A stretch of 63,431 bases of DNA, filler included, from Candidatus Woesearchaeota archaeon (GTDB taxonomy: Archaea > Nanobdellota > Nanobdellia > Woesearchaeales > GCA-2687795): NCBI GenBank assembly GCA_030753365.1. It is 4 parts of 4 records of this genome, joined end to end, with 100 filler letters (N's around TTAATTAATTAA, not from the genome) between each part and the next. Parts side by side here need not be neighbours in the genome. Positions count along the whole stretch, not along the records: positions 1 to 24,829 come from JASMCJ010000020.1; 3 more parts are not named here. One strand, 5' to 3'. How positions within the stretch are numbered: the first letter of the stretch is position 1; every line of letters starts with the position of its first letter. The position numbers and the translations under genes were made by a program. The notes beneath the pieces are model-generated. The model was given only the letters and a program-made list of their open reading frames with translations, did no database searches and was not told the DNA's origin. Of the stretch, positions 827 through 26,666 are shown one piece after another.

Positions 827-1042
827 ATGGAGACTATAAGCCTAAATTTATTACAACAAATAGCAGAAGATATAAAATTTCTAAAGCATGAAATACTAAA
901 CATAAAAGAAGATGTAAATGAATTAAAAGACTTTGAACTAGAAGTTAAGCCAGAATACATAACAAAACTAAAAAGAATAGATAAAGAGAAAGGAATTCCA
1001 TTTAGTGATATGTCTGAATTAAGAAAGATAATTGAAGGTTAG
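827..1042 (+). CDS. Putative type II antitoxin
   Basis: 71-aa acidic helical ORF ending 1 nt before the start of a RelE-like gene. Confidence 0.65.
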   Translation: METISLNLLQQIAEDIKFLKHEILNIKEDVNELKDFELEVKPEYITKLKRIDKEKGIPFSDMSELRKIIEG

Positions 1043-1043
1043 A

Positions 1044-1316
1044 ATGTATAATTATGAGATTAAGCCCTCTTTACAAAAAATTCTTAAAAAACTGTCAAAA
1101 AAAGACAGAAAAAGGTATGAAATAATCATAAAAAAGATTAAGGAAATCATTAACCATCCAAATCCACACAATTATAAAAATCTAAAACATGATCTAAAGG
1201 AATTCAAAAGAGTGCATATTGATTCTCACTTTGTGTTAACATTTAAGGTTGATAAGGACAAGAACTCTATTCTATTTGAAGATTTTGATCATCATGATAA
1301 AATAAATTCTATATAA
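1044..1316 (+). CDS. RelE/StbE-family toxin (archaeal type)
   Basis: Basic ~90-aa protein with YKNLKHDLKEFKRVHIDSHFVLTF and FDHHDKI; ATG at 1044 coupled to the upstream ORF. Confidence 0.8.
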   Translation: MYNYEIKPSLQKILKKLSKKDRKRYEIIIKKIKEIINHPNPHNYKNLKHDLKEFKRVHIDSHFVLTFKVDKDKNSILFEDFDHHDKINSI

Positions 1317-1351: not shown

Positions 1352-2674
1352 TCAAACCTCCACCTTCTCCCCATTCCCTAACAAATGCACATTCTTCTTA
1401 GGATTGTAGCCCATCTCAACAGCAAGCTCCTGCAAAGCACTTCTCATCTCAATTCCACCATGCGCAGGAACAAGATGTTTAGGCTTAACCAAATGAATAA
1501 AATCTCTAAGGTCTTCTTTAGCGCAATGCCCGCTTACATGAATATCCTTAAAAATCCTAACACCTAAATCTTTCAAGTCTCTCTCCAACACACGACGATT
1601 TTCTTCATTTGTAGGCGTTGGTATAACCCTGCATGAAAATATAACATGATCCTCTTTCCTAAACTTAAAAATGTCACTATTAGCCATCTTAGACAATGTT
1701 GATTTAGGCTCGCCCTGATGCCCTGTAACCACTAAAAGATACTTCTCACTCCCTTTCTCTTCAATTTTTTTCAATCTCTTCTTAATCTTACTGCCATATT
1801 TCACAATTTCAACTTCTTTAGAAAAATTCACAAGCCCAATATTTTCACCAGCCTCAACATACTTAGCAAGACTTCTTCCTAAAAACACAATCTTTCTGTT
1901 AAGCTTCTTCCCAATCTCGATGATACTCTTCAATCTGGCAAGATGAGACGCAAACGTTGTAACAATAACAGCCTTTCCAACACTGTCAACACCTAACAAA
2001 ACATCTTTAAGCATCTGCTTTGCTACAGACTCTGAAGGCATCTTGCTCTCAGAAGAAGAATATGTAGAATCAACTATCGCAGCCAACACACCTTCCTTAC
2101 CAAGTTCCTTCATTCTCTTAAAATCCGGCTTCTTTCCAAGCACAGGAAACCTGTCAAACTTAAAATCGTTAGCATACAACACTTTCCCATTTTTTGTATG
2201 CACAACCGCCATCACAGTTTGAGGAGTTGAGTGCGTCATATTAACAAACTCAACCTTAATATCCTTAGAAATTCTATAACTAGAACCAGCATTAAGCACA
2301 ATAATCTTATTATTAATCTTTATTTCCTCATCTCTAAGTATGGCCTTTATAACCTCTGCAGTATAAGGACTGCAAATAATAGGCACACCAAACTTATTAG
2401 CCAGATAAGGTATGGCACCACAATGGTCAAGATGCGCATGCGTAACAATTATAGCTTTTACATTAATATCCTTAAGCACAGAAATATCAGGCACTGCCCC
2501 AACCTTCATCAGTTCATTGGCATTAATATTAACAATATCTTCATCTTCTGTATATTTAATGTAACTATCCAAATGAATCCCTAAATCAAACAGCACTGCT
2601 TCATTCCCAACTTCAAGGGCTGTACAATTCTTTCCCACTTCATCATATCCGCCTACTGCATATATTTTTACCAT
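1352..2674 (-). CDS. rnj: Ribonuclease J (metallo-beta-lactamase/beta-CASP)
   Basis: GGYDEVGKN, THAHLDHCG, HVSGH and PAHG motifs. Confidence 0.92.
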   Translation of the reverse strand: MVKIYAVGGYDEVGKNCTALEVGNEAVLFDLGIHLDSYIKYTEDEDIVNINANELMKVGAVPDISVLKDINVKAIIVTHAHLDHCGAIPYLANKFGVPIICSPYTAEVIKAILRDEEIKINNKIIVLNAGSSYRISKDIKVEFVNMTHSTPQTVMAVVHTKNGKVLYANDFKFDRFPVLGKKPDFKRMKELGKEGVLAAIVDSTYSSSESKMPSESVAKQMLKDVLLGVDSVGKAVIVTTFASHLARLKSIIEIGKKLNRKIVFLGRSLAKYVEAGENIGLVNFSKEVEIVKYGSKIKKRLKKIEEKGSEKYLLVVTGHQGEPKSTLSKMANSDIFKFRKEDHVIFSCRVIPTPTNEENRRVLERDLKDLGVRIFKDIHVSGHCAKEDLRDFIHLVKPKHLVPAHGGIEMRSALQELAVEMGYNPKKNVHLLGNGEKVEV

Positions 2675-2683
2675 TTTGACCTC

Positions 2684-2722
2684 TTACCCTTTACATTAAG
2701 GTTTTGCCATTGTAAAGGGTAA
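2684..2722. repeat. Palindromic site, copy 1 (12-bp arms, 15-bp spacer)
   Basis: TTACCCTTTACA-ttaaggttttgccat-TGTAAAGGGTAA. Confidence 0.95.
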
Positions 2723-3730
2723 CTACACCATAAAATTATTCCAATAGCCATCATCAAGCTCTTCGGCAATATAATTAACAAGCTCCTTATAAAATTTAGG
2801 CTCTATATTATTTAAATCTACGTTATTTCCCTTAGCAAGAGCATTCAAATAATCAGCTCTTCTCGATTTTTTAATTATCAAAGGAGGATATTTCTTTTTC
2901 ATCAAAATATAAATCATAAGCATTCTACCAGTTCTTCCATTTCCATCTGAAAAAGGATGTATTTTCTCAAATTTTTGATGAAAAATGGCAGCTAACGCCA
3001 AAGGATGTAACTCATCCTCATACTTTCTATACCATTTAAGTAGAATACCCATATCTGCCTTAACATAAACAAAAGGTGTTGCCTCAAACGCTGACTTAAA
3101 AACTCTTATATCATGCTGCCTATAGCCTTTTCTAGTATCAATATTTTCCATGAGTTTATCATGGACAGAAACTATAAATTCATTATCCAAACTAGCTATA
3201 GAATTAATAATCTCAAAAAAGACTTTTTCTGTATTCTGTAGGTCAAACACTTCCCTTAAATTTTTATCTTTTGGGGTTAAATTTTCTCTAAGCAATCTGT
3301 CTGCTTCCATTAAAGTGATAGTATTTCCTTCAAGTGAAGTAGTATTGAAAGCAAAATCTATCAGGAAATTCTTATATGCTTCACTAACTGTTTTTTCATC
3401 CAATTTTAGAAATTTCTTATTGAAATGCTCTTTAATTGCCTCAACTTTATCCAATAAATCCTTCTCTAAATAGTCATCTTCTTTTAACTTAAGCTCTTTA
3501 ATCTTTTTAAGATAATGTTCTGATTCAATATACTTCTTAATGTCCCTATAAGCTTTTCTTACTTCTTTTTTATAAATAACTGGTAATTTTTTCAGTTTAG
3601 GCTCAATCTTAGAAACATCACTGCCAAGATAGGCTATATCTTTGACTATTATTTTGCCTTTAATTCTCTTTGAAATCCTTAAATAATAATAAGGCTTTTC
3701 CTGAATTATTTTCTTATAAATATATACCAT
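2723..3730 (-). CDS. Fic-domain protein (class II, intramolecular inhibitory motif) with an N-terminal basic beta-sheet domain
   Basis: Canonical Fic motif HPFSDGNGRTGR; inhibitory motif TTSLEG. Confidence 0.92.
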   Translation of the reverse strand: MVYIYKKIIQEKPYYYLRISKRIKGKIIVKDIAYLGSDVSKIEPKLKKLPVIYKKEVRKAYRDIKKYIESEHYLKKIKELKLKEDDYLEKDLLDKVEAIKEHFNKKFLKLDEKTVSEAYKNFLIDFAFNTTSLEGNTITLMEADRLLRENLTPKDKNLREVFDLQNTEKVFFEIINSIASLDNEFIVSVHDKLMENIDTRKGYRQHDIRVFKSAFEATPFVYVKADMGILLKWYRKYEDELHPLALAAIFHQKFEKIHPFSDGNGRTGRMLMIYILMKKKYPPLIIKKSRRADYLNALAKGNNVDLNNIEPKFYKELVNYIAEELDDGYWNNFMV

Positions 3731-3750
3731 ATAAGATAGAAAATCGAACT

Positions 3751-3762
3751 CATATATATATC
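3751..3762 (-). promoter_or_regulatory. Probable TATA box of the leaderless fic gene, abutting palindromic site copy 2
   Basis: Minus-strand GATATATATATG ~20 nt upstream of the fic ATG. Confidence 0.5.
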
Positions 3763-3801
3763 TTACCCTTTACATTAGTAAAATTAGATTGTAAAGGGTA
3801 A
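3763..3801. repeat. Palindromic site, copy 2 (12-bp arms, 15-bp spacer)
   Basis: TTACCCTTTACA-ttagtaaaattagat-TGTAAAGGGTAA; arms identical to copy 1. Confidence 0.95.
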
Positions 3802-4260
3802 CTATTTTTTAACCAGCCTCACAACCTCTTTTGGAACAAGCTTTTCCCAACCTTTACTATTCAACAATTTCCTTACTTTTGTAGAAGAAACCCCTTCAAG
3901 CATCTTAACCTTTTTAACCTCAACCCCTTTCTCCTTAAACAACCTTATAACCAAAGGATTTGAAGAATACACAACATCAAATTTAGGAACTAAAACCTTC
4001 ACATGCTCCACCCATTTCTTGTCATTAGGAACATCAGGTATAGGAAATATAGTATAACCACCAATATCTAAACTAACCAATGTTTCTTCTATCATCTTAA
4101 ACCTTTCCTCAAACGTGAAAGGATTTCCCTTAACACCAGCCTTTTTAGAACTTCCCACACATATCACAATCTTATCAACTTTTCTAAGTATCTGCCTTAT
4201 AGCAGATAAGTGCCCTTTATGAAAAGGCTGAAACCTTCCTATGAACAATGCAATCACCAT
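3802..4260 (-). CDS. nadM: Nicotinamide-nucleotide adenylyltransferase
   Basis: FIGRFQPFHKGH, NPFTFEER and SSTKVR motifs. Confidence 0.85.
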   Translation of the reverse strand: MVIALFIGRFQPFHKGHLSAIRQILRKVDKIVICVGSSKKAGVKGNPFTFEERFKMIEETLVSLDIGGYTIFPIPDVPNDKKWVEHVKVLVPKFDVVYSSNPLVIRLFKEKGVEVKKVKMLEGVSSTKVRKLLNSKGWEKLVPKEVVRLVKK

Positions 4261-26371: not shown

Positions 26372-26464
26372 TTTCTATTCAAAAAGTTTTAAATAAATAT
26401 AAACCTTTCTATAAGAGATAATGGATTTCAACGAACAAATAAAATTATTGGAAGAGAAATAAAA

Positions 26465-26558
26465 AATCCCAATCGCAGCAAGCTGCGGGGTATTTTTAGT
26501 ATTTAGTTTGTGTATTAATGTCGATGCAAGCATCGGGGTATAAAACCCAAACTAAATA
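26465..26558 (+). repeat. Pair of REP/IS605-end-like GC hairpins (second one enclosed by an 11-bp inverted repeat)
   Basis: AATCCCAAT-CGCAGC-AA-GCTGCG-GGGTAT and CGATGC-AA-GCATCG-GGGTAT; TATTTAGTTTG/CAAACTAAATA. Confidence 0.75.
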
Positions 26559-26666
26559 ATTAAACATTACCCATCATAATAAGAGGACTCAACACTAAGC
26601 AAGGGATATGTATTAGAAATCCATTTAAGGTAAGAGACATGATATTATCTCTCCCTTATCTTCTAT

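Follow-up and report, generated by a model that had tools for sequence, protein, structure and literature searches.

The window analysed here, i.e. the whole 63,431-nt stretch assembled from four records of a Woesearchaeal genome, contains a gene for a Fic protein that lies between nadM and rnj and is framed by two palindromes with identical arms. This raises the question of what these palindromes are: sites by which a single gene moves, operators bound by a protein, or both. We therefore compared the locus with its orthologs, with the genomes of its order and with known regulatory and mobile systems.

The fic locus and its product

The two exact 12-15-12 palindromes described in a sequence-only reading of the window are indeed present, with four identical 12-bp arms and 15-bp spacers (Table 1). 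As that reading also stated, each copy on the coding strand is preceded by a TAG stop codon (that of nadM, then that of fic) and followed by GA, and the unit has its own TATA box, a TATA-like run directly after the upstream copy. The GAGGT motif at 2679-2683 lies 4 nt ahead of the rnj ATG. The GC content of fic is 29%, versus 36-39% in the neighbouring genes. A paired search of the 896,806-bp genome (at most 3 mismatches per arm and 4 in all, spacers of 3-30 bp) found only these two sites, chance expectation being about 0.2 exact arm copies. The two spacers are merely 0.40 identical, i.e. at background level, though all four arms are perfect.

Table 1. Features of the fic locus, in positions of the window
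Feature	Position	Strand	Basis or remark
Upstream palindrome, 12-15-12	3763..3801	.	Predicted operator, overlying the BRE of the fic promoter; marks the left end of the unit
TATA box, 2 nt after the upstream palindrome	3751..3762	-	Sequence; equal placement across orthologs
fic, 335 aa, predicted class II Fic protein	2723..3730	-	Pfam PF02661 (E 1e-21), motifs, AF2, Foldseek
N-terminal basic three-stranded beta-sheet domain, residues 1-45, predicted DNA-binding	3596..3730	-	AF2, HMM, hhalign
Inhibitory-helix motif (S/T)xxxEGN, residues 130-136	3323..3343	-	Sequence; 46/46 orthologs
Fic catalytic loop HPFxDGNGRxxR, residues 258-269, intact	2924..2959	-	Sequence; 45/46 orthologs
Downstream palindrome, 12-15-12, beginning at the fic stop codon	2684..2722	.	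Marks the right end of the unit
nadM, host gene, 152 aa, stop abutting the upstream site	3802..4260	-	Pfam; comparison with a same-genus relative
rnj, host RNase J, with GAGGT ribosome-binding site	1352..2683	-	In the relative, the ribosome-binding site lies inside the nadM 3' end

Two other features of the window deserve mention. Just beyond rnj (827-1316, plus strand) lies a likely toxin-antitoxin pair, formed by a small gene resembling DUF2683 and one resembling RelE, neither of which reaches the Pfam cut-off. Moreover, positions 26457-26563 hold a 107-bp repeat with nested hairpins that has 21 near-identical copies in the genome, besides degenerate relatives; it is REP- or MITE-like and may be linked to IS200/IS605.

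The fic product is, as predicted from its motifs and fold, a class II Fic protein. It matches PF02661 above the cut-off, has the HPFxxGNGRxxR loop and carries on the same chain, N-terminal to the Fic core, an (S/T)xxxE(G/N) inhibitory helix (class definition as in the accessible text of PMC10628234). In the AF2 model (pLDDT 92), for which Foldseek returned FICD and BT_2513, a basic N-terminal three-stranded sheet with helices precedes the Fic fold and the chain ends in Fic helices. The strands of the N-terminal domain span residues 2-9, 12-23 and 26-36, and residues 1-45 include 11 K/R versus 4 D/E. No family name was obtained for this domain in Pfam, NCBIfam, PHROG and PDB sequence scans; Foldseek gave no match at an E-value of 0.001 or better, Atlas matches were below 0.9 and bore no name, and the best VIA match, a ribosomal protein (Z 6.7, rmsd 2.9, 73 aligned residues), was not taken as homology. 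The same domain also stands at the N-terminus of other enzymes (P0189, P0239, P0245, P0247, P0259), namely a nucleotidyltransferase, class II tRNA synthetases, a serine hydrolase and a phosphatase, the promoters of which may carry matching operators.

The upstream copy and the domain likely to bind it

An exact-pattern scan of GTDB species genomes returned 20 genomes with 23 loci between them, most bearing Woesearchaeota or Nanoarchaeota in their titles, and an orthologous fic abuts the site in 18 of the 20; viral contigs gave no exact match. With up to three mismatches, 41 of the 401 genomes of the order match, versus one for the reversed control. A close Fic ortholog is encoded by 28 of the 41 site-bearing and 17 of the 360 site-less genomes (45 in all, kin not being independent). 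These tallies include four genomes flagged as unpublished (G132, G315, G244, G374), on which no sequence claim is based.

Sixty of the best Fic matches by protein similarity were retrieved, of which the 46 of at least 45% identity were scored together with the window (47 loci); broken or fragmentary loci (L135, L142, L113) and those at contig ends were excluded from some counts. A site precedes the gene in all 46 evaluable loci (background: 1 of 1207 windows), a count that is partly circular since the matrix was trained on upstream arms, and that takes a neighbouring or outer site for L113 and L114. In 43 loci, the upstream site ends 30-34 nt before the ATG, and the TATA box begins within the next 1-3 nt. 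In the established layout of archaeal promoters, the right arm of the upstream site falls on the BRE position.

The sequence of the arms follows the Fic subfamily and not the host, even inside one genome. For instance, a Fic clade at 36-41% identity has another half-site, occurring as direct repeats around the TATA box and again at the stop codon (9/11). Position 3 of the arm is A with Tyr16 (35/35) and T with Thr16 (9/9), a single change on the tree that does not count as independent evidence. Several site types can thus occur together in one cell, each next to the Fic gene to which it belongs, which points to the Fic protein and not to a host factor as the binder; since the arms change with the Fic subfamily, the N-terminal beta-sheet domain likely binds the site as an operator. 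The palindromes are therefore likely to be binding sites of the Fic protein that they enclose, as predicted from sequence. Very probably, a Fic dimer would bind the two 12-bp half-sites through its N-terminal domains. With the upstream copy covering the BRE position next to the TATA box, this binding would likely repress fic. The proposal that the palindromes are paired operators for a dimeric DNA-binding protein thus fits the upstream copy best, the most likely binder being Fic itself. The module points to a DNA-coupled control of Fic activity in archaea, and the variants of the domain within the family, with their matching half-sites, form a natural table from which a recognition code of beta-sheets could be worked out.

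Palindromes also accompany more distant Fic genes. A distant paralog in the window genome (G000:C60:7388-8522) has its own 12-24-12 palindrome around the TATA box and a 12-23-12 palindrome overlapping its last codons, with an outer direct repeat of 42 bp (86%). A third Fic gene (G000:C8:21587-22588) does not encode the beta-sheet domain; it is preceded by a 10-15-10 palindrome, and its product has a basic C-terminal extension.

The N-terminal domain is homologous to the N-termini of IS1634-family transposases, as judged by profile comparison. An HMM built from Fic N-termini alone scored 9 of 32 IS1634 N-termini at 9.5-32 bits, the maximum of 640 shuffles being 7.4, and hhalign aligned the Fic and IS1634 N-termini over 43 columns (97%, E 7.7e-11), with a set that was partly pre-selected by HMM score. 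In addition, a stand-alone homolog of the domain searched against plasmids met IS1634 annotation in 14 of the 30 rows listed, with weak E-values and many near-copies; Pfam found no transposase family in the 46 matches scanned among the 150 listed by a profile search. We infer, from an unrooted comparison, that the Fic module likely borrowed its DNA-binding part from a transposon. The domain would thus probably descend from the N-terminus of an IS1634-type transposase, and the sites at promoter and stop codon would likely perpetuate an old end-binding arrangement in which Fic replaced the DDE core. In that case, an autoregulatory module would likely have arisen from the DNA-binding domain of a transposase.

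IS1634 elements were found in 29 of the 401 genomes of the order, some of the contigs being possible contaminants of the bins. Several of them (L301, L302, L293, L294) have TGTAG-type motifs beside a TATA box and at the stop codon. In a promoter-versus-stop motif test, elements with the domain gave 7/15 (control 35/210) and elements without it 4/8 (control 11/56), so that the two groups are not separated. The window genome has no IS1634 (no match to NF033559), fic being the sole ORF between the sites, and the co-occurrence of IS1634 with a Fic ortholog is not enriched (5 of the 29 genomes, p 0.35). One IS1634 element (L284), on a contig that may be bacterial contamination of the bin, is flanked by a 40-bp direct repeat.

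Gain, loss and boundaries of the unit

A nadM-rnj locus devoid of fic was found in a relative of the same genus (G001, 75% complete), and it holds no copy of the site. The expectation that removal of one site and fic would restore an intact operon did not hold: the empty site lacks a palindrome, and nadM, which encodes 167 aa instead of 152 aa in the window (15 aa more), overlaps the start of rnj. As far as can be judged across nadM genes of 57% identity, the insertion would have replaced about 36 nt of the nadM 3' end and kept the ribosome-binding site of rnj. A metagenome scan with rnj (80 loci) found nadM beside rnj in L145 alone, which is identical to G001, and no palindrome in any locus; the window locus thus has one independent empty site. 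Likewise, in genus g164, one genome (G301) has a site-fic-site arrangement that two others (G253 and G192) lack at the matching locus. Comparison of G301 with G253 places the ends of the unit at most 3 nt from the outer arms, and nothing is duplicated there. In further searches for empty sites, the genus had no second genome, nothing matched or the flanks were rearranged; at the locus of G056, G164 has no site but other content.

Flanks differ between ortholog loci: in an all-against-all comparison, no two loci share both, except in three g86 genomes. In seven close pairs of modules, identity is 0.58-0.84 over the site versus 0.13-0.30 in the 30 nt outside it. Furthermore, in genus g86, one genome (G178) has a single hybrid site without fic where another (G241) has the full unit at the matching locus; the hybrid combines the left flank of the upstream copy of G241 with the right arm of its downstream copy. 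Together, the empty sites in relatives, the differing neighbours and the hybrid single site support a single-gene mobile cassette, and this part of the sequence-only reading stands. Its other part, a dif- or attC-type recombinase acting in trans, is not supported, given the spacers, the direct orientation, the site-less targets and arms that follow the Fic subfamily. Genome comparison shows a fic unit that is evidently mobile, having been gained, lost and placed at different loci across Woesearchaeales genomes. In these comparisons, the unit begins at the outer edge of the upstream site and reaches either the stop codon or the outer edge of the downstream site. Excised circles or joints, a check proposed in the sequence-only reading, were sought as well; no skipped or circular form was seen in four contig sets from runs at a depth of about 3-7, a weak search as it used contigs of low depth.

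Of the 43 loci that could be evaluated, 19 have a downstream site, which in 17 of the 19 lies 0-9 nt past the stop codon. Its presence changes 11 times on a 40-row tree, no fewer than in shuffles. Across modules, spacer length varies from 13 to 15 bp and the whole site measures 38-39 bp. Within modules, spacer identity is 0.67 in direct and 0.35 in inverted orientation, versus 0.41 between modules (0 of 2000 permutations); it reaches at least 0.85 in 6 of 17 modules in direct orientation and in none of the 17 in inverted orientation. Moreover, the spacers of a module resemble each other more than those of its nearest relative in 13 of the 17 (0.68 versus 0.46). This likeness in direct orientation suggests that the pair of sites is repeatedly re-derived from one copy. 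Since the window spacers are at background level and the arms are perfect, the window would hold an old or recombined pair with arms that are still conserved. This suggests selection on binding at the downstream copy, beyond a mere relic of movement.

Of the 41 site-bearing genomes, 13 have no close ortholog, and 8 of 10 such single sites examined lack a TATA box. In genus g139, three single sites bear the spacer of the G348 module at three other loci. Other arrangements were also observed. Three loci (L111, L114, L119) have two tandem sites upstream of fic, separated by 2-3 or 33 nt, lack a downstream one and carry a host repeat that starts at the stop codon; they look like circularly permuted two-site modules. 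At L004, L009, L096, L108/L115 and L138, modules or sites of different Fic subfamilies adjoin, often beside MNT-HEPN pairs, so that these loci look like hot spots. In L004, the two sites of one module are identical, and a second, hybrid-looking single site lies at 639.

Of 63 modules, 12 have long flanking repeats (14-100 bp) that exceed the 99th percentile of controls, few of them exactly abutting; one of the 12 (L129) is a repeat of the site and not of host DNA, and the window module has no long flanking repeat. The two copies are identical in some cases and are homologous gene ends in others. In L120 and L106, they are two versions of the 3' end of a host gene, differing mostly at third codon positions. 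Short target duplications of at least 5 bp occur in 2 of 17 cases (control: 15/272).

How the unit moves, and known systems compared

Movement is the least certain step. We found no dedicated recombinase for the module, and the reading that we favour, with about an even chance, over three rivals needs none. Host recombination or slippage between the direct copies would delete fic, leaving one hybrid site and a one-site circle. The circle would then re-enter by short homology. Entry at a leftover single site would yield two direct copies that are nearly identical, and entry at a captured host gene end would yield long flanking repeats. Neither of the two clean empty sites contains a single site, so that re-entry at a leftover site needs an unseen intermediate. 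Such a route, which is open to testing, would allow very small archaeal genomes to acquire, shed and relocate accessory genes one at a time. A wider and rather speculative idea, which we hold to be possible but would not expect to stand as a whole, is that these are self-bracketing cargo modules of DPANN archaea combining an IS1634 end-binding domain with Fic. Each variant would bind its own half-site at both ends, repress itself and pair the ends; the 38-bp site would be a miniature direct terminal repeat, duplicated on insertion, left singly on loss and reused as a landing pad, either without its own recombinase or with an IS1634 transposase in trans.

Among the rivals, a non-autonomous IS1634-type transposon, whose sites are bound by a transposase in trans and whose site or long variable target is duplicated by staggered cuts, draws on the homology of the Fic domain, the presence of the family in the order, the TGTAG-type motifs of some of its members and the sharp ends of the module. 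The long flanking repeats also agree with it, the accessible text of PMC2266710 reporting that IS1549 and IS1634 make variable direct repeats of 8-514 bp. We consider it unlikely, however: the window genome has no such element and co-occurrence is not enriched, no conserved C-starting terminal repeat lies outside the sites, a right-hand site is missing from 24 of 43 modules, with no clear half-site after the stop codon, and the third-position differences in the repeats of L120 and L106 fit homologous entry better than fresh duplication. We give a similarly low probability to purely regulatory sites, i.e. looping operators or a downstream roadblock protecting the next gene, spread by ordinary horizontal transfer and illegitimate recombination with the bound protein setting the ends of the fragments. 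This reading accounts for an upstream site that is universal, for a downstream site that is optional and for arms that stay perfect where spacers diverged, as in the window, and it has a precedent in CccR of Yersinia pseudotuberculosis, a Fic enzyme and transcription factor that, according to the accessible part of PMC9755527, represses its own promoter as a dimer on a 10-N26-10 palindrome. It leaves unexplained the likeness of spacers within modules over nearest relatives, the single sites that share one spacer at several loci, and the direct-only orientation, as conversion between palindromes should presumably be blind to orientation.

XerA/dif-like or integron-like crossover sites, at which a host tyrosine recombinase would excise and insert the cassette, seem improbable to us, even though hybrid single sites and direct spacer likeness are the expected products of such recombination and two XerA-like recombinases are encoded on other contigs (C44 and C13; L143, L144) of the 0.9-Mb genome. 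The spacers of 13-15 bp vary, whereas dif and pdif are 11-6-11 and pdif are inversely oriented; related Fic clades use spacers of 23-24 bp or direct repeats. The site occurs in 41 of 401 genomes, is tied to the Fic gene and coexists with other site types, each with its own Fic. Moreover, empty targets have no site, and outer arms score equal to inner arms.

Other candidates were rejected. Homogenisation of terminal inverted repeats does not agree with inverted spacer similarity at background level; an inner TG...CA element with the spacer as target duplication would need a site to be there beforehand, and empty targets have none; TA duplication accounts neither for TTCCCC-type arms nor for the G253 junction. 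The sequence-only reading had named a generic terminator as a possible refutation; a terminator or hairpin of this kind does not agree with the tie to one gene family and with the direct repeats in related clades.

We found no description of such a Fic-palindrome module in searches of the open-access literature, and the palindrome has no credible match in Rfam. The attC sites of integrons have an RYYYAAC...GTTRRRY core and form imperfect hairpins with extrahelical bases over 57-141 bp. In contrast, the Fic site measures 39 bp, its 12-bp stem is perfect and has no bulges, and the core triplets do not lie at the ends of its arms. Moreover, attC cassettes are promoterless and arrayed, with an integrase nearby or as CALIN, whereas fic has a TATA box, the genome has two sites and the recombinases are on other contigs. 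As in the dif modules of Acinetobacter and the archaeal XerA/dif system, an accessory gene lies between short palindromic sites with no adjacent recombinase (accessible parts of PMC6449649 and PMC2958812). However, dif modules, as described there, have 28-bp, host-defined and inversely oriented 11-6-11 sites, while the Fic sites are 12-(13-15)-12, cargo-specific and directly related.

Among Fic proteins, CccR has in common with the module a palindrome at its own promoter that is tied to the Fic gene. It differs by a C-terminal HTH and one operator, as far as the available text of its report goes, whereas the Woesearchaeal Fic has an N-terminal beta-sheet and an operator that recurs at the stop codon of a mobile unit. 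CbFic2 of Coxiella burnetii and the class II protein FICD have likewise an intact Fic loop and an N-terminal inhibitory helix, and by likeness to CbFic2, DNA binding coupled to dimerisation may switch activity (PMC10628234, in part). Unlike the Woesearchaeal protein, CbFic2 has a C-terminal wHTH, and the accessible text of the same article describes neither a specific operator nor a mobile unit.

The IS1634 family shares with the module a homologous N-terminal domain and, in some Woesearchaeal members, short motifs at the TATA box and stop codon; two of its members make the long variable direct repeats mentioned above (PMC2266710, in part). The Fic module differs from what that text describes by having neither a DDE core nor an outside terminal repeat, and by palindromic sites of 38-39 bp instead of single motifs. 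As in IS26 pseudo-compound transposons and translocatable units, the cargo lies between direct copies and a circle would hold one copy; homologous recombination leaves one copy, and modules pile up beside existing sites (PMC8722046). Unlike IS26, the Fic repeat is non-coding, 38-39 bp long and likely bound by the cargo protein, and no clear short target duplication is seen. By analogy, the module would work like a pseudo-compound transposon in miniature whose cargo is a Fic gene that regulates itself.
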